Shown: positions 2,079 through 15,117 of the stretch, one piece after another
Layout of the letters: each line of letters begins with the position of its first letter
Position numbering within the stretch: position 1 is the first letter of the stretch
Assembly (NCBI GenBank): GCA_017962565.1
Contig: JAGCVC010000020.1
Span: 68,622 to 132,621, forward strand
Length of the DNA: 64,000 bases
Reading direction: 5' to 3'
Source of the DNA: Alphaproteobacteria bacterium
GTDB lineage: Bacteria > Pseudomonadota > Alphaproteobacteria > CAAHEQ01 > UBA3637
Translations under genes and position numbers: made by a program
Notes under the pieces: generated by a model
The model's database searches: none
The model's input: the letters and a program-made list of their open reading frames with translations, nothing else
What the model was told of the DNA's origin: nothing

Positions 2079-3377
<1,299 letters not shown>

Positions 3378-3543
3378 TCATCTTTAACTTTGCAAAAATT
3401 TTTGTCATAGAAAAATTTTTTAGTCTAAAGATACTTTTTCAAGTGATTTTTATTGAAAATAATAAAATTTTATGCTACAGTCCTTGCAACTGAACAGCTC
3501 TCCGTATTTATATGTTTAAAAATTTTAGAAAGGATCTTTAATA

Positions 3544-3915
3544 ATGCAGAAAATTGACTGCAATAAAGAAATTAAAAAAGCGACCGTGCGTGTCAACTTT
3601 TTGAAAGAAACGACTGACATATTTTTCATGGTCTCAGCTGCGATGGCTGTTCTTTGTGTAGGTGCAGAAGCTGCCAAATCTTTTGGTGTTGGGAAAAATC
3701 ATTTACCATTAGGTTCTCTTGCTATAACAAATTTTATTACGTCTCTCTCCTTTTTCTTTTTGGCTTCCATGAGCAACGTTTTGAAAAATGAAGCGATTGA
3801 CGAACGCGAAAGGTTAATCCGGGATTTAAATAAAAAGAAAGAAGATGCTAAAAAGCTTATGCATCATCATGATTCAAATAATATAGTCAAAGCACAAAGT
3901 AAAGAACACTGCTAG
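3544..3915 (+). CDS. hypothetical membrane protein (ORFan)
   Basis: 123 aa ORF in an AT-rich intergenic islet. Two hydrophobic helices followed by a charged Lys/Glu-rich tail. No recognised family. Confidence 0.45.
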   Translation: MQKIDCNKEIKKATVRVNFLKETTDIFFMVSAAMAVLCVGAEAAKSFGVGKNHLPLGSLAITNFITSLSFFFLASMSNVLKNEAIDERERLIRDLNKKKEDAKKLMHHHDSNNIVKAQSKEHC

Positions 3916-3930
3916 TAAAGGAAAATAAAA

Positions 3931-4500
3931 ATGTTTTATCAAGATTTTGATGCGGCAATTAAAAATGCATCTGGGAAGAAAAATTTTGCTCAACGGGCTA
4001 CAACTGCCTTTAATATGGCTGCAAAAACTTTTGGAATGATCGGAGTATGTTCCCTTACATTGTTTGGAATTGGTATCAGCTCAATGTCCGGAACTTCCAC
4101 TATCTTATTGGCCGCGACAAGTATTATTGCATCTGCTTCATCTTGGGGGCTGTCTCACTTTTCTTCCGCTTACGCAAAAGAAGTTAATTATGAAATAAAA
4201 TACTTCAACGAAAAAAAGGCTCTTCAAGAAATGTTCAAAGAAAACGAAAACACTTTGCAGAAACGTTATCAAAGAAGAAGGCATATTGCCTTTTTAAAAG
4301 AAGAGTTTAAAAAGACAAAATTAATTGGTAATGAAGGCATGGAAGAAACTTTACAAAAATCAAATAAGGCAAAAGAAATTGCTATAGCGATCAGCACAAA
4401 TTCGGAAATATTAAGAACGGGTTGCGCTTCCAGACACAAAAAAGCCGAAAAATTGTTGAAGGCACGAAAAAGATTTTGGAATTCCCATCAGAAAGAATAA
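3931..4500 (+). CDS. hypothetical membrane protein (ORFan, same architecture as 3544..3915)
   Basis: 189 aa. Gly/Ser-rich hydrophobic helices (GIGISSMSGTSTILLAATSIIASASSWGL) then a basic coiled tail. Followed immediately by a strong terminator. Confidence 0.5.
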   Translation: MFYQDFDAAIKNASGKKNFAQRATTAFNMAAKTFGMIGVCSLTLFGIGISSMSGTSTILLAATSIIASASSWGLSHFSSAYAKEVNYEIKYFNEKKALQEMFKENENTLQKRYQRRRHIAFLKEEFKKTKLIGNEGMEETLQKSNKAKEIAIAISTNSEILRTGCASRHKKAEKLLKARKRFWNSHQKE

Positions 4501-5036: not shown

Positions 5037-5853
5037 ATTTCTTTGCAACTTCATCAAATTCTTTTATTTTTGTCAAAATGGATTCCAATTGATGAAGCGG
5101 TATCATATTCGGTCCGTCACTGGGAGCATAATCCGGATTAGCATGCGTTTCAATGAACACACCGGCAATACCCGCTGTAATTGCTGCATTTGCTATTATC
5201 GGTGCAAACTCACGTTGACCACCACTGCTGGTACCCTGTCCACCCGGCTGTTGAACACTGTGCGTTGCATCAATAATTACCGGATAGCCCGTTTGTTTCA
5301 TAATCGGTAAACTGCGCATATCGACAACTAAAGTATTATAGCCGAACGAAACGCCCCGTTCCGTCAACAATATGTTTTCATTGCCTGTACTTTCCAACTT
5401 ACCGACAACGTTTCTCATATCCCAAGGGGCCAAAAATTGTCCTTTCTTGACATTGATGCATTTACCCGTTTTACCGGCAGCAACCAACAAATCCGTTTGA
5501 CGACACAGAAAAGCCGGTATTTGCAAAATATCGACAACTTCGGCCGCTTTTTCACATTGCCATGGTTCGTGAATATCCGTAATTACCGGGCAACCGTACT
5601 TTGTTTTAATATCCGAAAATGCTCTTAAAGCACTATCCAATCCGATACCACGAGCACCGTTAATCGAAGTACGATTGGCTTTGTCAAAGGATGCTTTGAA
5701 CACGTATGGAATATGTAACTTTTCGCAAATTTCGTTAATTGCACAAGCCATTTCCATCCCGTGTGCCTCACTTTCCATTTGGCAAGGACCGGCAATTAAA
5801 ACGAATGGCAATTCGTTTGAAAAAGTAACTTTTCCAACTTGAACTTTTTTCAT
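5035..5853 (-). CDS. kdsA: 3-deoxy-8-phosphooctulonate synthase (KDO8P synthase)
   Basis: 272 aa; ...[15 protein letters not shown]... typical KdsA/DAHP-synthase-I family. Confidence 0.9.
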
Positions 5854-7927: not shown

Positions 7928-8014
7928 GCCTCTGTGGCGGAATTGGTAGACGCGATAGACTCAAAATCTGTTGCTCGCAAGAGCGTGCTGGTTCAAGTCC
8001 GGCCAGGGGTACCA
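7928..8014 (+). tRNA. tRNA-Leu (anticodon CAA)
   Basis: Folded by hand. Acceptor stem GCCTCTG/CAGGGGT with G-U pairs, D-arm, anticodon loop CTCAAAA (CAA), long variable arm GCTCGCAAGAGCG typical of Leu. T-arm GCTGG-TTCAAGT-CCGGC, discriminator A, encoded CCA. Confidence 0.85.
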
Positions 8015-8061
8015 AATCTAACAACCGTTCCGATTGGGACGGTTTTTTATTGTTTTGCAAG
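8009..8061. repeat. att-like direct repeat copy 1: tRNA-Leu 3' end plus terminator
   Basis: 53 bp, GTACCAAATCTAACAACCGTTCCGATTGGGACGGTTTTTTATTGTTTTGCAAG. It recurs with 2 mismatches at 10180..10234. Confidence 0.8.
8021..8055 (+). terminator. rho-independent terminator of tRNA-Leu
   Basis: AACCGTTCC-GATT-GGGACGGTT 9-bp stem with tetraloop, followed by TTTTTATTGTTTT. Confidence 0.6.
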
Positions 8062-8272
8062 CATTTGAGCGAGTTCGATAACTCCCCCTTTTTAAAGGCG
8101 CCATTTCCGTAAATTATCGAACTTTTGGGATGCTGTTTCTTTATAAAACAATCACTTATAATGAGTTCAAGTCTGGCCAGCCCCAGAAACGAATTTTAAT
8201 TAATTTATTATTGACCAAGGAATCATAATTAAGTAGGATATATAAAAAGTACACAAATGTAGTGAGAAAGAA

Positions 8273-9112
8273 ATGACAAAAAGAAAATTATTTATTCCTG
8301 AAGGATATGAAGAAGATTATATCCGACACATACGACAAGAATCCAAGTACATACAAAGAAAATCACAGTTTGCAGAAGCAGAAATTCCACCTCTTGTTCC
8401 TAAATGGAAACCAACTCTAATGATGTATAATATAACAGATGAGATACAAGAAAAAAACAAACAAAGACATAGCCTTTATGACAAAATAGGTTTTTATGTG
8501 TTCCTTTTTATCTCTTTGATTATAATATATAAGGGACTATGTACAGCTAAAGGATTTTCATCTTTTATTGGAATTCTTTTACATAGAGCTTTCATTTGTT
8601 TAATTTTCGTTGGAGGACCTGTGGGTGCCATTCTATCCATTAAAACAGGTGTTGATAAACGTATTGAAAAATACAACAGACATTTAGAGGCATGGAAATA
8701 TTGGTATGAATTATATCCTCGGAAAAAAGTGATTTCTTATTGGAAAGATTTATCTGGATATAAGTTTGAAAAAGAACTTGCACAAATTTTTATTAAAAAT
8801 GGGTTTGATACTGAAATAACAAAAAAAAGTGGAGATGGTGGAGTAGACATTATACTCAATCCCAAAGGAGAAAAGATTTACATACAATGTAAAGCGTACA
8901 AAACACGTGCCGGTGTGGCTGTTGTCAGAGAGCTTTTAGGATGTATGGAATTAAACAATGTTGAATATGGTATCGTAGCCTGTACAGGAGGCTTTACGAA
9001 AGGAGCTATCGAAGCAGCACTAATGGCACACATTACTTTGTTGGATTCAAGCGATATTGTAAAGTTGATGGATAAAGACATACCATTGGATTATTTCTAT
9101 AGAAAAGAGTAA
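8273..9112 (+). CDS. membrane-anchored Mrr-family restriction endonuclease-like protein (Mrr_cat PD-(D/E)xK domain)
   Basis: 279 aa. N-terminal about 70 aa soluble region, two predicted TM helices (IGFYVFLFISLIIIYKGL; FIGILLHRAFICLIFVGGPVGAILSI). C-terminal domain has hallmark Mrr_cat motifs FEKELAQIF..., SGDGGVDII, IYIQCKAYK, GFTKGAIEAA. Confidence 0.75.
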   Translation: MTKRKLFIPEGYEEDYIRHIRQESKYIQRKSQFAEAEIPPLVPKWKPTLMMYNITDEIQEKNKQRHSLYDKIGFYVFLFISLIIIYKGLCTAKGFSSFIGILLHRAFICLIFVGGPVGAILSIKTGVDKRIEKYNRHLEAWKYWYELYPRKKVISYWKDLSGYKFEKELAQIFIKNGFDTEITKKSGDGGVDIILNPKGEKIYIQCKAYKTRAGVAVVRELLGCMELNNVEYGIVACTGGFTKGAIEAALMAHITLLDSSDIVKLMDKDIPLDYFYRKE

Positions 9113-9224
9113 CTTCTTTAATTCTTATTTTCTTGATTTTCTTGCCATAATATGATACAGTTCAGATATTAAAAATAGAAAAACATTTTCAAAATTTTAG
9201 TTAAAAAGAAATGAAGGATTTAAT

Positions 9225-10061
9225 ATGGCTAGTTATTCAGAATTAAATAGTAAATATTTCATAGATAATAAGGCATTTAATTGTCCCTTTTGTGGTTTAA
9301 GAAATACTACTTATACTATATTAGCAATTTTAAAGTATGATTTAAATAAAAACAAGTCTGCTAAAGTTATTTTTGTCCGCTGCAATAGATGTGGAAAAGT
9401 ATCCATTCATTTTGCTTCTTGTGATATACAAACTTCATGGGGAAAAGATGCACTTGGTGTTATCAAAGGTTTCAGTGGTTCTTCTGTGTGGATTAATACA
9501 TTGAATAATATCGATTTTTTAAATTCTAAAAATGATGATAGCGAATTTGATATCGATATAGATTCTAAAATATATCACAGTATTCCCTCTTCATCTTTTA
9601 CAATGGATGAACGAATCCCCAGGAATTTAAGAGATCTTTTTGATGAAGCTCAAGAATGCAAAAAAGCAAATTTAAAGACAGGAGCATCAGCTTGTTTAAG
9701 AAAATTAGTTTATACTTTGTTATCAGATCAGCTAAATAAAAAGCATAAAAAGACGAAGCAATCAATAAAAGATTTAGGCTACGAACATTATTCTGATTGT
9801 ATTAAAGCCTTAAAAGAATATCATCCTAATTTAAGCGTTTTTATCGCCCCTCTAGAAGGTATTACAGGTATAACTAGCGACCAAGTGCATGAAGATTCAT
9901 GGGCTGAAATATCATCACAAGATTTGGGCATTTGCTTAGAAGCTATGAGGGATTTATTAAACCAGATATATGTTCAACCTGCTATCTTGAAAGAAAGAGA
10001 AAACAAAATACGTGAAATGAGTAAGAAAGCATCCACTAAAAAAAAGAGTACGGATAAATAA
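9225..10061 (+). CDS. hypothetical protein with N-terminal Cys4 zinc ribbon and C-terminal DUF4145-like helical domain
   Basis: 278 aa. CPFCG...(26 aa)...CNRCG zinc-ribbon spacing. The C-terminal region (LFDEAQECKKANLKTGASACLRKLVYTLLSD ... GITSDQVHED ... EAMRDLLNQIY) resembles DUF4145 as I recall it, unverified. 112 bp downstream of the Mrr-like gene on the same strand. Confidence 0.5.
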   Translation: MASYSELNSKYFIDNKAFNCPFCGLRNTTYTILAILKYDLNKNKSAKVIFVRCNRCGKVSIHFASCDIQTSWGKDALGVIKGFSGSSVWINTLNNIDFLNSKNDDSEFDIDIDSKIYHSIPSSSFTMDERIPRNLRDLFDEAQECKKANLKTGASACLRKLVYTLLSDQLNKKHKKTKQSIKDLGYEHYSDCIKALKEYHPNLSVFIAPLEGITGITSDQVHEDSWAEISSQDLGICLEAMRDLLNQIYVQPAILKERENKIREMSKKASTKKKSTDK

Positions 10062-10097
10062 ACTTTCTCTCATAAAAAATTTAAAACAGGACCTCGA

Positions 10098-10125
10098 CGT
10101 CCTTAATTAAATCATTTATTTGCTG
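10098..10125 (+). terminator. possible weak terminator after 9225..10061
   Basis: AGGAC-CTCGAC-GTCCT short hairpin followed by an AT-rich tract. Weak. Confidence 0.3.
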
Positions 10126-10150
10126 TACCAACTTTTTGAAATCGTCCGGA

Positions 10151-10234
10151 TGTTTGGCTCGGTATTCGTTAAGCATGCTGTACCAAATTTAACAACCGTT
10201 CCGATTGGGACGGTTGTTTTATTGTTTTGCAAGG
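10151..10234. repeat. att-like direct repeat copy 2 (29-nt prefix plus 55-nt tRNA 3' end/terminator copy)
   Basis: 10180..10234 matches 8009..8061 with 2 mismatches and includes the terminator hairpin. The prefix TGTTTGGCTCGGTATTCGTTAAGCATGCT is shared with the copy at 10904. Confidence 0.8.
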
Positions 10235-10254
10235 TTGTTTTGAATAAAATTCTA

Positions 10255-10812
10255 TTATCTTCCGGAACGACAAAAGATTGCAACATTATGGAATAATTTA
10301 CACCCTCTGTGATTTTTCCCTAGATTTCTTATTTCTCCAATCGTTGTTTGAGAACCTTCCTTCATATTAAAAAGATCTAATGAAACATCCGGACAATCCA
10401 TGCATAAAATAGCAATTCCTTCTGCTGTTTCGGGATTACCATCTAAATCTAAATATAAATCGGCGTATCGATGAGATAATATTTGGGTTGGTTTAATAGG
10501 CAAATTTCCTACTTTTCCGCTGATAGATAAAGTTTCCTTAATAAGCATATTTGTGTACTTTTTACCACCACTACCGTACAAAGCATTTTTATCTGTAAAA
10601 TTACCTTCACCGCTTATAGAGCCTTTTGCATTAAAAGAAAATGGTGCGATTGATGTCCCATCAACTTCATCAGCTTTTATATACGTTTCTTTTTTGATAA
10701 TGCGAACAGAGGTATTATCTTTTCTTTCATCTACTTTTTCCCATGCGTTTACATTGAATAAAGCAGAAAAAATCGTCATTCCTAAAATCAATTGTTTTAA
10801 TTCTTTTTTCAT
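10255..10812 (-). CDS. hypothetical secreted protein (ORFan)
   Basis: Track ORF 10255..10929. Start moved to MKKELKQLILGMTIFSALFNVNA (signal-peptide-like) at 10810-10812 so the gene does not overlap the repeat at 10904-10950. Cys-rich C-terminus. No recognised family. Confidence 0.5.
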   Translation of the reverse strand: MKKELKQLILGMTIFSALFNVNAWEKVDERKDNTSVRIIKKETYIKADEVDGTSIAPFSFNAKGSISGEGNFTDKNALYGSGGKKYTNMLIKETLSISGKVGNLPIKPTQILSHRYADLYLDLDGNPETAEGIAILCMDCPDVSLDLFNMKEGSQTTIGEIRNLGKNHRGCKLFHNVAIFCRSGR

Positions 10813-10903
10813 CTTTAAACCTTCTTTTATGTGTTTCGAGAGCATCATTCTAGCATATTTTATTTTTTTGTCAAGATTTTTTACAAGTGTAAAGTATTCC
10901 GTG

Positions 10904-10950
10904 TGTTTGGCTCGGTATTCGCAAAGCACGCCGTACCAAATTTAACAACC
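10904..10950. repeat. att-like direct repeat copy 3
   Basis: TGTTTGGCTCGGTATTCGCAAAGCACGCCGTACCAAATTTAACAACC: 47 nt matching 10151..10197 with about 5 mismatches. Lacks the terminator-hairpin part. Confidence 0.7.
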
Positions 10951-11057
10951 ATTAAATTATGAACAATTATTTGTCAGTTGATTTCTCGACTATGTTTTTA
11001 TTGACAATTTTTCGATTTTTTGTAAAAATAAAAATCTAATTTGACGGAGAATTAAAT

Positions 11058-12236
11058 ATGGCTACATTAAAAACCAAAGTTTTAAACATTGAATTTGAAA
11101 ATCCTTTTTTATTATCATCTGCGCCACCAACCGCACGCATAGATAGTATTGATAAAGCTTTTGAACTCGGTTGGGGCGGTGCCGTACTTAAAACGATTAC
11201 TCCGGATAATTTGGAAATGATAGAAGCCAGCCCGCGTTATGCTGCGTGGAAATTAAACGGTAAAGTATATGGTTTTGAAAACATCGAATTACTGAGTCAT
11301 TTAACTGTTCAAGAATGGTTGGATGGTATTGCTTATCTTAAAGCTAAACATCCTAAAAAAGTAATCATCGCCAGTATTATGGCTCCGGTTATCAAAGAAG
11401 AGTGGCAAAAACTTGTTAAAACTTTAAACAATACATCAATTGATGCCTTTGAGTTAAACTTTTCTTGTCCTCATGGCATGCCGGAAAAAGGCATCGGCAT
11501 GGCAATTGGAACAGATCCTGAAATATCGGCAAACATTACAAAATGGGTAAAACAAGTAGCTCAAAAGCCTGTATTTGTAAAGCTTTCTCCGAATGTTTCA
11601 AACATTAGCAAAATTGCTCAGGCTGTGATAGATGCAAATGCCGATGGCTTATCTGCGATAAACACTGTACAATCAATAATGGGAGTGGATTTAGATACCT
11701 TGGAACCACAACCAAATGTCAATGGAACATCTACTTTTGGCGGATATTCCGGTATAGCCATAAAGCCAATCGGTCTAAGATGCGTTGCTCAAATAAGGCA
11801 AACAACGGACAAACCGATTTTAGGAATGGGCGGAGTATCAAATTGGCATGATGCTGCCGAATATATAGCTATTGGTGCAGATGTTGTTCAAGTTTGTACC
11901 GAAGTTATGATAAACGGCTATGAAATTATAAAACCTATGTGCGATGGATTACTCAATTATTTAGAAAGCAAAGGTTTTAACTCTCCAAATGACATAAAAA
12001 ACAAGGCATTTGTCAAACTGACATCTCATGAAAAATTGAAAAAGATGCATACATGCCACCCAGATATAAATGATGAAAAGTGCTTGAAATGTGGTAAATG
12101 CGTTTCTATTTGTGCAGAACAAGAACATAGTGCTCTGCACTTGGAAGATCGCAGTGTAAAAGTTGACATGGAAAAATGTGTGGGTTGCTCGCTTTGTTCG
12201 ATTGTCTGTACTCGTGGCGCAATTAAAATGAAGTAG
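11058..12236 (+). CDS. dihydroorotate dehydrogenase-family flavoprotein with two C-terminal 4Fe-4S ferredoxin motifs (PreA-like dihydropyrimidine dehydrogenase subunit)
   Basis: 392 aa. TIM-barrel DHOD/DHPD-like N-terminal body (GGAVLKTIT, FELNFSCPHG, GGVSNWHDAAEYIAIGA). C-terminal CLKCGKCVSIC and CVGCSLCSIVC clusters. GGAG SD 8 nt upstream. Confidence 0.75.
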   Translation: MATLKTKVLNIEFENPFLLSSAPPTARIDSIDKAFELGWGGAVLKTITPDNLEMIEASPRYAAWKLNGKVYGFENIELLSHLTVQEWLDGIAYLKAKHPKKVIIASIMAPVIKEEWQKLVKTLNNTSIDAFELNFSCPHGMPEKGIGMAIGTDPEISANITKWVKQVAQKPVFVKLSPNVSNISKIAQAVIDANADGLSAINTVQSIMGVDLDTLEPQPNVNGTSTFGGYSGIAIKPIGLRCVAQIRQTTDKPILGMGGVSNWHDAAEYIAIGADVVQVCTEVMINGYEIIKPMCDGLLNYLESKGFNSPNDIKNKAFVKLTSHEKLKKMHTCHPDINDEKCLKCGKCVSICAEQEHSALHLEDRSVKVDMEKCVGCSLCSIVCTRGAIKMK

Positions 12237-12255
12237 CTCAATCGCCTGGCACATT

Positions 12256-12273
12256 GTACCAAATTTAACAACC
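12256..12273. repeat. att-like direct repeat copy 4 (core only)
   Basis: GTACCAAATTTAACAACC, identical to the core of copies 2 and 3, located 20 nt after the preA-like stop. Confidence 0.55.
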
Positions 12274-12390
12274 ACTTAGAAATGTTTTTTTCATTGTTTT
12301 TCGATTGGAAGCAAGTAACAATTATTTTTGGAAATATAATTAGTTATAAAAGATTGACAATGTAATATTTTCAGCGCTATTATTGAAACC

Positions 12391-14022
12391 ATGAAAAAAT
12401 ATGCTTTTTCTTTTAGCAAAACGACTTTGATTAGTGTAGTTCGTCTCTGCAAAACGTGGGGTGCCTATTTTCTTAAACTACTTTTCTTGTCATTACTTTT
12501 ATCAATGCCACTATGGTGTATGGATTATTGCTTGAATTGGCTTGGGATCTACATTCAACCTCATTTTCATGTAGATTCTTTCTTTTTAGCAGTTTTGTTA
12601 TCCCTATTGTTAATTCACGTCAAAAGTAATTATTTTTTTTATTCGATATTTGTCGGATTATTGTTAATAATATATATCGGTTTTTTCCATTATTTATATT
12701 TTGGAAGATATTTTACCGGATATGATATTTCTTTATTTTTCAATGAAATGCAAGATACAATCCTGGAGTTCAGTAATGATTTTTGGAAATATTGGCAGTT
12801 ATTGTTAAGTGTTATATTTGGGCTCTTATTGATGTTTTGTGTGCGGTTTTCTGCTAATCGGCATATTAAACAGTCTAATTTGTTTGTTGTGTTAATAATC
12901 CTTTCTTTAATGATTATTCCTATTCAAAATATTAAACGTGGCGGAGAATTTATTTTTCCAAATTCCGCTCAATTTATGTACTACAATGGATTAAAATCAA
13001 TTTCTTCATATTTTATCGATGTGTTAATCTCACGCAAGGAATTAAAATCATTTTTGCCCTATCAAATTGAATTAAAACATTCTTCCTCGGAACCAATGAC
13101 AATTATTTATATAATGGGAGAAAGTCTGTCGGCGGATCATTTGTCTTTATTTGGGTATGCAAGAAAAACGACCCCTTATTTAGAAGAATGGGCTAAACAG
13201 CAAAACTTTTATTATACACGCGGAGTTTCAGGATCTACTGTAACACGCAATTCAATTGCGGCATTTATAAATTTCCAAAAAGAACCGGAAAATTATACCT
13301 TAGTTCAATCCAAGGAACATAATTTGTTTAAATTAGGAAAAAGGGCTGATTTTTCTACAACATTTATGAGTGCCCAAACATTTTCCTCGTTTCCTCATGT
13401 AGGGCTGGAATATGTTGACTATTCTTTTTATAAAGGTAAAAGAAACTTACCTTTAATTTTAGGAGATGATTTTTGGCAAGAAAATTTAAAATCGATCCCG
13501 TTATCTAATAAAAATTTTATTGTAATTCAAATGCGGGCAATACATAGTCCTTACAAAAAAGGGTGGCAACACCGCTTTGATGATTTTAACCATTTTTCAG
13601 GACACCCTGAAGACAAAATTGATGATTATGATAACGGTGTTTTATACGTAGATTCCATTTTGAATAAGACATTAGAATGGGCAAAAGATCTTCCAGGTAA
13701 AGTATATGTGTTTTTTGCATCAGACCATAACGAATTGTTTGGAGAATATGGTATCCGAGGGCATATAACTTTGCACCGACAAGTAGCCCGTATACCTGTT
13801 TTTATTTGGAGTAATGATACGAATTTTGTCCGCGATTTTAAGTCAATTATAAATCCAAGCCATTGGGATATAGGGGAACAAATTTTGCGTTTAATGGGAT
13901 ATGAGGTTAACAATCCAAATACAGAAAAAGATATCATTTTTATACAAGGTAGTGATCCTACAGGTGAGGCAGGATTTATAACCTTAAAAAAAAGCGGTCA
14001 AGAATTAATTGAGGTACATTAA
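12391..14022 (+). CDS. phosphoethanolamine transferase (EptA/MCR-like, sulfatase-fold, 5-TM N-terminus)
   Basis: 543 aa. Five N-terminal TM helices. Periplasmic sulfatase-like domain with IYIMGESLSADHLSLFGYARKTTPYL, YDNGVLYVDSIL and ASDHNELFGEYG motifs typical of the EptA/EptB/MCR family. The nucleophile position carries Ser (GESLSA) where EptA/MCR have Thr (GETARA). Confidence 0.75.
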   Translation: MKKYAFSFSKTTLISVVRLCKTWGAYFLKLLFLSLLLSMPLWCMDYCLNWLGIYIQPHFHVDSFFLAVLLSLLLIHVKSNYFFYSIFVGLLLIIYIGFFHYLYFGRYFTGYDISLFFNEMQDTILEFSNDFWKYWQLLLSVIFGLLLMFCVRFSANRHIKQSNLFVVLIILSLMIIPIQNIKRGGEFIFPNSAQFMYYNGLKSISSYFIDVLISRKELKSFLPYQIELKHSSSEPMTIIYIMGESLSADHLSLFGYARKTTPYLEEWAKQQNFYYTRGVSGSTVTRNSIAAFINFQKEPENYTLVQSKEHNLFKLGKRADFSTTFMSAQTFSSFPHVGLEYVDYSFYKGKRNLPLILGDDFWQENLKSIPLSNKNFIVIQMRAIHSPYKKGWQHRFDDFNHFSGHPEDKIDDYDNGVLYVDSILNKTLEWAKDLPGKVYVFFASDHNELFGEYGIRGHITLHRQVARIPVFIWSNDTNFVRDFKSIINPSHWDIGEQILRLMGYEVNNPNTEKDIIFIQGSDPTGEAGFITLKKSGQELIEVH

Positions 14023-14132
14023 TTAGTTTTCAAATGTGAAACTCTAATTTCCTGAATTAAAATTTTAAAAGTTTATAAAACTTGAAACCCGCTAAATAAT
14101 TTGCCAGGTATTCGCTCAGCCCACTATATCAA

Positions 14133-14999
14133 TTACTCTCTGGTTTTTTCGACAACTTGTTGCGTACGGGCTATTTGCTTTAATTGCTTATCCGTAATTT
14201 CAGCGGTAAATACGGTTGTTGCAGGTCCGGCCATCAACACATCTTTATTTTTATCATAGCTTACAGAAAGTTCTCCTCCATCCAAAATAACTTTTGCATT
14301 ATCAGAAACCATCTTAATATGATTAGCCACCGCAAACGATGCACATGCACCCGTTCCACAAGCCATTGTGCGTCCGGATCCCCTTTCCCAAACACGCACA
14401 CGTAAAGCATCTTTCGCCTTTGCCGGTTCGATAAATTCAACGTTAGTCCGTTCCGGCGCAAAACAAGCATCGTTTTCTATTGCTTTTCCAAAATCATTGA
14501 CTTCCGTTGCTTTTATCTGCCCGGGTAAAACAACAAAATGCGGATTACCGACATTAACGCAATAACCTTCAATTAAGCGACCCAAAATCTTTAAAAGAGT
14601 TAGCTCCTTTATTTCAACCTTTCCCATATTGACCTGAACTGCACTTACTTGATTATCTTCATCTGTAAACAAAGTCAAATGCTTTACCCCAGACAAGGTT
14701 TCAATCCGTAACTTCTTTGAAGTTGTCAACCCGTTATCATATACATACTTTCCGACACAGCGAATTCCGTTTCCGCACATTTTACCTTCGGAACCATCCG
14801 AATTAAAAATACGCATTTGAAAATCATTTTTATTGTCTTTTGGCGGTAAGACAAAAATAACCCCATCCGAACCGATACCGATATGAGAAAGGCTGAAATA
14901 CTTTGCCAAATCTTCCGCATTATCTATTGCTTTCGGATATGCATAACCGTCAATGTAAACATAATCGTTTCCTAAACCGTGCATTTTTGTAAATTTCAT
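14133..14999 (-). CDS. dapF: diaminopimelate epimerase
   Basis: MKFTKMHGLGNDYVYIDG... and two catalytic Cys regions (MCGNGIRC; ACGTGACAS). Track ORF reaches 15014. The internal ATG at 14997-14999 has AAGGGA upstream and matches the conserved DapF N-terminus. Confidence 0.85.
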   Translation of the reverse strand: MKFTKMHGLGNDYVYIDGYAYPKAIDNAEDLAKYFSLSHIGIGSDGVIFVLPPKDNKNDFQMRIFNSDGSEGKMCGNGIRCVGKYVYDNGLTTSKKLRIETLSGVKHLTLFTDEDNQVSAVQVNMGKVEIKELTLLKILGRLIEGYCVNVGNPHFVVLPGQIKATEVNDFGKAIENDACFAPERTNVEFIEPAKAKDALRVRVWERGSGRTMACGTGACASFAVANHIKMVSDNAKVILDGGELSVSYDKNKDVLMAGPATTVFTAEITDKQLKQIARTQQVVEKTRE

Positions 15000-15117
15000 T
15001 TTTTTCCCTTTCATTTAAGATCTTGAAATTATTTTACTAAAAAAAACGGCATTTGCAACTTTTTTATTCAGCATTTTTATATACTCTATGCCATCAGAAA
15101 GACAGTTATCAAAATTA

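Follow-up and report, generated by a model that had tools for sequence, protein, structure and literature searches.

Background

Staphylococcal cassette chromosome (SCC) elements, that is SCCmec, pseudo-SCC and their composites at rlmH (orfX), and the Enterococcus cassette chromosome are inserted at the 3' end of a conserved gene by large serine recombinases (LSRs; CcrAB, CcrC); short direct repeats mark each junction, and the tandem composites include units that have no recombinase genes. In this study, we describe an islet of comparable build that lies directly downstream of the tRNA-Leu(CAA) gene in a 64,000-nucleotide stretch of DNA from an Alphaproteobacteria bacterium (assembly GCA_017962565.1, contig JAGCVC010000020.1, positions 68,622 to 132,621 of the forward strand), the whole of which is called the window below. 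A sequence-only reading of the window had noticed that serial copies of the tRNA 3' end separate unrelated genes there, and had proposed either successive site-specific insertions at one tRNA, by a recombinase now lost or located elsewhere, or an integron-like cassette array. Our analysis supports and sharpens the first of these proposals, because the recombinase is now identified. In kind, the islet is an accretion array in which LSR-type islands and cis-mobilizable relics stand in tandem, comparable to those at Dehalococcoides ssrA and in the staphylococcal SCC; it is not an integron.

In BPs-type mycobacteriophages, the gene that is split encodes the repressor, and the integrase is a tyrosine recombinase. 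The part of the literature on BPs-type immunity that concerns integration-dependent truncation places attP within a coding sequence, with integration altering the C-terminus of the protein (PMC4557955). For the Dehalococcoides ssrA islands, the portions of McMurdie et al. 2011 (PMC3146451) that deal with island structure describe tandem islands bounded by direct repeats of the ssrA 3' end, with a conserved motif just upstream of each repeat and an integration module, on the reverse strand by attL, that encodes a serine recombinase of ~540 amino acids (DsiB) together with a small serine recombinase of ~200 amino acids. The same portions read the islands that lack this module as cis-mobilizable elements (CIMEs), draw the comparison with SCC, and cite the concept of accretion and mobilization (the ICESt1/ICESt3 model), for which a review is also available (PMC5704250).

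Direct repeats of the tRNA-Leu 3' end bound four modules

The islet spans positions 8009-14131 of the window, and we read it, at a probability of roughly 0.8, as a tandem array of four small integrative modules that were serially inserted at the CCA end of tRNA-Leu by a tRNA-3'-end-targeting LSR (Table 1). The tRNA-Leu(CAA) gene, the sole tRNA that ARAGORN finds in the 64 kb, stays intact despite the insertions, and direct repeats of its 3' end bound the modules. The 18-nt core GTACCAAATYTAACAACC starts at 8009, 10180, 10933 and 12256, always on the forward strand and nowhere else in the window; these four copies compare with 0.16 expected, and none of 100 shuffles reached four. The core copies pointed out in the sequence-only reading, including the one that stands alone at 12256, are all exact and confined to the islet. 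The 53-bp stretch at 8009-8061, in which a terminator-like hairpin is included, recurs at 10180-10234 (repeat families D1 and D17, with spacings of 2171 and 2172); the two mismatches that had been counted between these copies stand as two substitutions, to which a 1-nt difference in the length of the T-run has to be added. The portion of the tRNA that is repeated in the window amounts to 6 nt only, and GTACCA is the sole stretch common to tRNA-side and element-side junctions. The tRNA terminator hairpin and its T-run are present also at the empty site of a relative (L020; see below).

The sequence upstream of the repeats is a severed recombinase tail

The second and third core copies had been reported to carry a 29-nt prefix. 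Within the window this prefix is found only at 10151-10178 and 10904-10931, as reported, but it is part of a longer block of ~100 nt, delimited by an nhmmer DNA profile of eight prefix blocks at 10079-10187 (E 2.5e-26) and 10837-10940 (E 4.4e-18), values that are partly so by construction because both window copies are in the profile. A weak extra copy suspected near 14101-14122 corresponds to a profile match at 14083-14131 (E 0.032), which is outside the profile's inputs, ranks third among the matches in the 64 kb and has the correct strand and position; as a terminal copy of the same block it is a marginal but credible candidate.

The source of the prefix was identified with a profile hidden Markov model (HMM) of eight native C-terminal tails from the LSRs of relatives (described in the next section), which was searched against the six-frame translation of the whole window. 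The two prefix blocks are the top two matches (E 6.8e-8 and 9.2e-5), both on the minus strand and in the LSR frame, with the next match at 0.09; tblastn with P0123, an LSR with a native tail, gives E 0.042 for the block at 10079-10179. The prefix blocks are homologous to the coding sequence of the native LSR C-terminal tail, and because the best two window matches of the tail profile are these blocks, we regard the prefix as the cut-off 3' coding tail of an LSR gene. Hence, it would represent the element-side arm of attP (the P arm), severed on integration and left at the far end of the module.

P arm blocks stand at the right end of such modules in eight further loci as well (L004, L007, L010, L013, L026, L033, L041 and L042). 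In the minus-strand frame that corresponds to the L018 LSR, they encode short open peptides, namely WYSMLNEYRAKHPDDFKKLVQQINDLIKDVEVLF for the arm at window core copy 2, WYCTLSEYRAKHRKDFERLAMEVELLKF for L033 and WYSVLCEYRAKHTDDFEKLAKEVENLFA for L004, each ending in a stop codon. Two other frames of the prefix, RMFGSVF.K.AVPNLTT on the plus strand and VVKFGTAC... on the minus strand, were ruled out by the L018 LSR open reading frame (ORF) and the tail profile; third-base variation fits both prefix strands, because the wobble positions coincide. A scan of metagenome contigs with the pattern of P arm plus GTACCAA returned two short contigs, and in both the P arm is followed by GTACCAA and the hairpin.

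In relatives the recombinase gene runs into the tRNA

An LSR of 541 amino acids, with Resolvase, Recombinase and Zn_ribbon_recom domains, is encoded on the opposite strand and abuts tRNA-Leu(CAA) in five relatives (L018, L019, L021, L023 and L031), whose hosts are uncultured gut Alphaproteobacteria. Its ORF crosses the hairpin, runs through the CCA end and stops inside the tRNA. The LSR is the first gene of islands of at least 10 kb (L018, L019, L021, L023, L024 and L031), in which a small serine recombinase of the Mpi type (200 aa) and a gene of the Dam family (PF05869) are present as well. Against the NCBIfam CcrB model the L018 enzyme scores 81 bits and against XisF 90 bits (cutoffs 900 and 375, respectively), and because of the large shortfall against the former it is not a Ccr orthologue.

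The L018 LSR has 329 homologues at E <= 1e-20, and we compared the C-termini in the best 120 of these. Beyond a conserved ...KPFDKLL-x(5-7)-W-[C/Y], the C-termini fall into classes: 30 or more of the best 120 continue in reverse-complemented tRNA (for example, ...WY followed by PWPDLNQ..., or ...WC followed by RWQESDLRPRHYQ), another 20 stop early, no more than 4 residues from the W, and 11 keep a native tail of the form W..L..YR....[DE][DE][FY] (for example, WC followed by AILCSYRTENYDEFKELTRKMELFE....). Reverse complementation of the tRNA end GTACCA gives TGG TAC, the W-Y codons, which would place attP inside the recombinase ORF, and with attP at the W-[C/Y] codons integration would swap the last ~30 residues for tRNA-encoded sequence. 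The presence of attP within the ORF appears to be a family-wide feature (L018 8238-9863, L043 970-2550, L045 2000-3637 and L037 7061-8743). The ORF of P0147 runs into tRNA-Thr(GGT) and diverges from the native-tail gene P0144 directly after AAATGGTGC; tRNA-Leu(CAA) and tRNA-Thr(GGT) are the verified targets of this LSR group, and other read-through tails suggest further tRNA targets. The native-tail LSR P0123 lies inside a tandem of two islands, and its ORF crosses the junction into the P arm of the neighbor, which indicates that accretion happens with intact elements too; an attP-like junction inside the tandem is found in L037.

In the window, a frame-disrupted 3'-end remnant of the LSR gene follows the tRNA terminator hairpin at 8045-8160. 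It recurs at 85-89% identity in L004, L007, L010 and L026, and in tblastn the end of the L018 ORF finds a match only in the adjoining positions 8026-7961 (E 1.8e-7), which comprise the core and the tRNA 3' end. To the right of cores 3 and 4, the search for LSR remnants gave only a non-significant colinear match at 12241-12408 (tblastn E 1.2-1.8). As a separate observation, an insert of ~80-110 nt (GGTTCGGTGGCAAGG...GGCGGTCCCG) splits the LSR remnant in the unrelated contigs L026 (about 9650-9760, minus strand) and L042 (about 300-400), and it may be a miniature mobile element.

Empty and occupied sites, and the movement of modules

With homologues of the flanking SDR gene as anchors, we recovered the locus in ~20 metagenomic contigs whose SDR protein is ~88% identical to that of the window. 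The tRNA-Leu site of these relatives is either empty, or holds a recombinase-less module, or holds an LSR island, and the synteny comparison that the sequence-only reading had recommended bears out its idea of successive insertions by a recombinase lost or located elsewhere: L020, L022 and L034 are empty, L033 and L026 are occupied and recombinase-less, and L018, L019, L021, L023 and L031 bear the LSR. At the empty sites, unrelated chromosomal genes begin directly after the tRNA, core and terminator. L033 holds a 5.4-kb, five-gene, recombinase-less insert, with tRNA, core and hairpin at its left junction and P arm, core and hairpin at its right, and beyond the right junction its sequence continues exactly as the empty site of L020 does. 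The flanks of L033 and L020 are 96.5-97.4% identical, which places both contigs in one species, so that the empty and the occupied site are found side by side within a species.

The contigs L026, L027 and L028 share the arrangement of the window (dapF, three small ORFs, tRNA, SDR) with partly different content. The housekeeping flanks of the window and L026 are 77.6-84.6% identical on both sides, whereas module 2 is 98.1% identical in its core and hairpin, 99.2% in its body (10234-10836, 603 nt) and 93.2% in the P arm that follows. The P arm on the left of module 2, which belongs to module 1 (a module not common to both), is 76.9% identical. The jump from 76.9% to 98.1% at junction 2 thus forms an identity step at the core, where the attachment-site model puts the module boundary. 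We take these comparisons to show that module 2 moved recently between species, and the polymorphism between L033 and L020 together with the 99% identical module 2 argues for recent movement, by whichever route.

The route could be homologous recombination after DNA uptake, in which case no site-specific recombinase would take part, the core, hairpin and P-arm repeats would serve present-day module exchange as short homology arms, and they would be no more than fossils of past LSR activity. The repeats provide 50-100 nt at 77-98% identity, module 1 is not the same in the window as in L026 although its two ends are conserved, and no LSR is present in the window or in the L026 and L033 loci. However, the identity step of module 2 falls at the core and not within a homology arm, in modules 3 and 4 precisely the 18-nt core is retained, without any further repeat, and LSR-bearing islands circulate in the same genus-level clade. 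We consider this explanation rather unlikely, if still one to be taken seriously.

In relatives, the unit of P arm plus core is located either downstream of tRNA-Leu itself (L007, L026 and L033) or after a displaced tRNA 3'-end copy (L004 and L010), while L013, L041 and L042 are short loci that show the unit but no tRNA. A scan of species-representative genomes for the core gave 15 matches, all single-copy, of which 4 are in uncultured gut or rumen Alphaproteobacteria; the collection excludes the window's own genome, and the scan thus does not extend to the genome-wide copy number there. The other 11 matches, in unrelated phyla and with no tRNA nearby, were treated as chance, and two matches from a viral scan were set aside as well, one inside a seemingly ordinary coding sequence (L016) and one an isolated 18-mer match (L017).

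L004 also shows a second kind of island at the same tRNA-Leu (2272-4023; 5675-5705). It has a 583-aa ORF that reads, by its motif only, as a tyrosine integrase, and its end is marked by 16 nt copied from the tRNA 3' end (CCGGCCAGGGGTACCA), after which the same core, hairpin and LSR remnant follow. Two recombinase types may therefore target this gene.

A model of serial accretion, and the alternatives to it

Accretion by the LSR, the reading that we prefer, would proceed as follows. The attP would consist of the P arm, GTACCA and a core-like P' arm, and would lie within the recombinase gene. Recombination within or next to GTACCA would join the body of the LSR gene to the tRNA (attL), and the last ~30 LSR codons, that is the prefix, would be left at the far end of the element beside a regenerated core (attR). 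The host trailer after GTACCA closely resembles the P' arm of the element, so that the tRNA-proximal junction stays attB-like and each distal junction stays attP-like; this would permit repeated insertion next to the tRNA, with older elements pushed outward. The recombinase genes would later have been lost, with the ~115-nt remnant at 8045-8160 remaining, and the units now present are recombinase-less, with the general form of core, cargo with its own promoter, and P arm. That the LSR catalyzed these particular insertions is inferred, as is the exact position of the crossover. The recombinase-less modules may still be movable, in trans or through accretion with a neighboring LSR element.

A more far-reaching version, which we put forward tentatively and consider possible but doubtful, is that tRNA-Leu, through its CCA end, anchors an LSR cassette system in this clade. 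The modules, which have no recombinase but do have promoters of their own, would keep no more than the two attP half-sites, with the LSR tail serving as P arm and the 18-nt core as P'. Their capture, stacking and exchange would fall to an LSR that acts in trans from a gene elsewhere, and the last ~30 residues of the LSR, which would differ between the free and the integrated state, could act as an integration sensor or directionality switch.

Several points weigh against serial insertion by the LSR. With members of this LSR family as queries, tblastn found no LSR gene or gene body in the 64-kb window, and neither circular nor excised forms of a module were seen in the contig-level comparison. 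Window-type arms have TAA or TAG two codons before W-Y in the LSR frame, and such copies could not have translated the tail; despite this, the tails of recombinase-less modules stay open and are conserved at the protein level. The hairpin is missing from cores 3 and 4, and core 4 is also without a P arm. Dyad symmetry around GTACCA is weak, with only GGTACC/GTAC palindromic when inspected by hand, and the crossover dinucleotide is not placeable. The T-arm-like fragment downstream of the tRNA, which the sequence-only reading had placed at 8160-8186 and which the repeat search recovers (Table 1), does not fit neatly either, and its origin is not explained by the LSR model. This fragment lies directly after the LSR remnant, outside the LSR coding sequence, with no acceptor end after it, and a T-arm-like piece of ~70% similarity occupies the same place in L010 (about 2470-2500). 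Finally, direct repeats of 18-53 nt fit tyrosine integrases better than they typically fit LSRs.

A tyrosine integrase had been named in the sequence-only reading as the recombinase to seek. In such a series of tRNA islands, an integrase of the P4 or phage type would have duplicated the tRNA 3' end with each insertion and would later have been deleted. Long direct repeats suit these enzymes, and in L004, an alphaproteobacterial metagenome-assembled genome, the 583-aa ORF contains, by reading, an ...HSFRHTF... motif ~1.7 kb to the left of the displaced 16-nt copy of the tRNA-Leu 3' end. In the window, however, just 6 nt of the tRNA are repeated, the arm beside each repeat is homologous to the coding sequence of the LSR tail, and the remnant at the tRNA is the 3' end of an LSR gene. 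The earlier remark that no integrase is in sight holds across the 64 kb for tblastn queries of the LSR family above and for the single tyrosine-integrase query, that of L004, which found no match (IntI was not used, and other recombinase families were not exhaustively scanned). We regard a tyrosine integrase as very unlikely, and the enzyme to seek is an LSR instead. The second island of L004 does conform to the tyrosine-integrase type.

An integron-like array, with an IntI-type integrase encoded elsewhere that acts on attC-type sites, is more improbable again. Integrons have an IntI gene with attI and a Pc promoter beside the array, their attC sites are imperfect inverted repeats with a single-strand fold, and most of their cassettes lack promoters and point the same way. 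Unrelated single-gene units are serially split by a repeated site here, and the core contains ATTTAAC, which by eye fits RYYYAAC. Yet the unit of P arm plus core has no attC-like single-strand fold, its folding on both strands being no more stable than that of shuffled sequence (z +0.18 to +1.65), the modules have promoter-like sites of their own (10-11 of 12 positions) and mixed orientations, the arm of the site derives from an LSR gene, and the array starts at a tRNA, with no match to the L004 tyrosine-integrase query in the 64 kb (IntI was not a query). A generic REP-like or terminator-associated repeat, scattered genome-wide and unrelated to mobile elements, can be discounted almost entirely: the repeat does include a terminator hairpin, but the unit has a coding origin and no copy in the window outside the islet, it is found in relatives downstream of tRNA-Leu or a displaced tRNA 3'-end copy or on short tRNA-less loci, and the 11 core matches in unrelated phyla look like chance.

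Modules and their cargo

The four modules, which range from 0.75 to 2.2 kb in size, and the remaining features of the islet are listed in Table 1. GC content is 31-36% in the islet, compared with 42% in the left flank and 37.5% in the right flank. Pfam and NCBIfam agree with the cargo assignments that had been made from the letters and translated ORFs: an Mrr_cat nuclease, a Zn-ribbon protein, a secreted ORF without a family, PreA and an EptA-like protein. Orientation is mixed, with the cargo of module 2 on the opposite strand, and promoter-like sites of the sigma-70 kind (10-11 of 12 positions) lie just inside modules 2, 3 and 4 (10847-10874, 11001-11029 and 12354-12383), which is consistent with self-sufficient expression of each module and not with one common promoter.

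The two genes of module 1 (8273-10061), an Mrr_cat nuclease and a Zn-ribbon protein, look like a two-gene candidate for anti-phage defense; the nuclease-like protein also matches PADLOC PDC-S02 (2.4e-14) and a ZorD nuclease domain. In module 3, a PreA-type gene stands alone in 1.3 kb, with no adjacent PreT partner, and the right end of the module is a core without a P arm. An eptA homologue with 74% DNA identity to window positions 12776-14010 is found, together with a GNAT-like ORF, in a metagenome-assembled genome from goat abomasum (L013; 6741-8000, 6099-6168), where it is followed by P arm and core. This indicates that a lipid A modification gene travels in such arrays in more than one lineage.

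Table 1. Features of the tRNA-Leu(CAA) islet, numbered from the first nucleotide of the window
Feature	Positions	Strand	Evidence and remarks
tRNA-Leu(CAA)	7928..8014	+	Intact, CCA encoded; ARAGORN; its 3' end serves as left (B) arm of the attachment site
Core copy 1 (GTACCAAATCTAACAACC)	8009..8026	+	Final 6 nt of the tRNA followed by 12 nt of trailer; right half-site common to all junctions
tRNA terminator hairpin (8023-8044) and T-run	8023..8061	+	Terminator scan; DNA fold -7.6 kcal/mol, z -2.2
Module 1	8027-10179	n/a	Mrr-like and Zn-ribbon ORFs, P arm 10079-10179
Frame-disrupted 3'-end LSR gene remnant, ~115 nt	8045..8160	-	DNA alignable by reading to the 3' coding end of the intact L018 LSR (...KSSINSEKHKILKLILSNS...)
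T-arm-like fragment	8163..8186	+	8165-8180 versus 7991-8006, 15/16 identical (repeat family D4)
Mrr_cat nuclease-like protein with hydrophobic N-terminal region	8273..9112	+	Module 1; Pfam PF04471 1e-27
Zn-ribbon ORF	9225..10061	+	Module 1; weak Pfam Zn_ribbon match; PADLOC PD-T7-4 2.2e-6 (weak)
P arm of module 1	10079..10179	-	Severed LSR C-terminal tail coding sequence; reads WYSMLNEYRAKHPDDFKKLVQQINDLIKDVEVLF to a stop; top match of the tail HMM (E 6.8e-8)
Module 2	10180-10932	n/a	Core, hairpin, minus-strand secreted ORF, P arm 10837-10932
Junction 2: core copy 2, terminator hairpin (10191-10218) and T-run	10180..10233	+	Left end of module 2; fold z -3.9
Secreted ORF, 185 aa	10255..10812	-	Module 2; no family match; promoter-like site 10874-10847
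P arm of module 2	10837..10932	-	Severed LSR tail (WYGVLCEYRAKHTEYF...), stop codon lost; tail HMM E 9.2e-5
Module 3	10933-12255	n/a	Core and PreA, no P arm
Core copy 3	10933..10950	+	Left boundary of module 3; lacks the hairpin
Orphan PreA-like dihydropyrimidine dehydrogenase subunit	11058..12236	+	Module 3; NCBIfam NF006183 453 bits (cutoff 335); Pfam DHO_dh and Fer4
Module 4	12256-14131	n/a	Core, EptA-like gene, degenerate P arm 14083-14131
Core copy 4	12256..12273	+	Left boundary of module 4; not preceded by a P arm
Possible, very degenerate LSR 3' remnant	12274..12408	-	Weak; tblastn to LSR residues 474-530, colinear, ending GC(stop)IWY
EptA-like phosphoethanolamine transferase	12391..14022	+	Module 4; Pfam Sulfatase 1e-34; NCBIfam P_eth_NH2_trans below cutoff
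Candidate degenerate terminal P arm	14083..14131	-	Closes the islet on the right; ends 2 nt ahead of the dapF stop; nhmmer E 0.032
dapF	14133-15014	-	Right neighbor of the islet

Comparison with known systems

With the scars carrying a piece of the recombinase gene, the question of the missing integrase is resolved for this islet, and the same approach could help to name the enzyme behind other orphan tRNA islets. The LSR family has short natural targets at tRNA CCA ends, with paired attB and attP readable from genomes, and may be of interest for genome-engineering toolkits. The position of attP inside the recombinase ORF suggests, though it does not prove, that the state of integration is coupled to the C-terminus of the enzyme. 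What we see among uncultured gut Alphaproteobacteria are very small recombinase-less modules, with candidate genes for defense and lipid A modification, that appear to be swapped between hosts, as in the case of module 2, which is 99% identical across hosts that are ~80% identical.

As far as the description in PMC3146451 goes, the Dehalococcoides ssrA islands are the closest counterpart of all, and like them L018 has an LSR (541 aa) accompanied by a small serine recombinase (200 aa, Mpi-type); the likeness to DsiB is one of description. Unlike the Dehalococcoides islands, which in that description target the T-loop of the tmRNA, the modules reported here are inserted at the CCA end of a tRNA-Leu, their hosts are gut Alphaproteobacteria, and at 0.75-2.2 kb they are far smaller. 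The motif that precedes each repeat is here a severed C-terminal tail of the recombinase, an interpretation that the portions of PMC3146451 cited above do not offer. The target of SCC is protein-coding (rlmH) and that of the window is a tRNA gene, and the LSRs of the window's relatives are not Ccr orthologues (81 bits versus 900). As in the CIME concept (cited in PMC3146451; review, PMC5704250), recombinase-less units with attL and attR stand in tandem with a recombinase-encoding element, or can be joined by one; unlike the described CIME cases, which use tyrosine integrases, the sites here are of LSR type, and what is retained as the arm comes from within the recombinase ORF itself.

The BPs-type mycobacteriophages, in the account of integration-dependent truncation given in PMC4557955, share with our LSR family an attP inside a coding sequence and a C-terminus that is changed by integration. 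Here, however, the split gene is that of the serine recombinase itself, and the comparison covers gene structure, not regulation. In the incompletely covered literature, we found no direct precedent for an LSR with attP in its own ORF, nor for LSR integration at tRNA-Leu. Hence, the kind of structure is a known one, and the variant may be new in three respects, namely an LSR that acts at a tRNA CCA end with attP in its own ORF, the swap of its C-terminal tail on integration, and very small modules that retain only half-sites.

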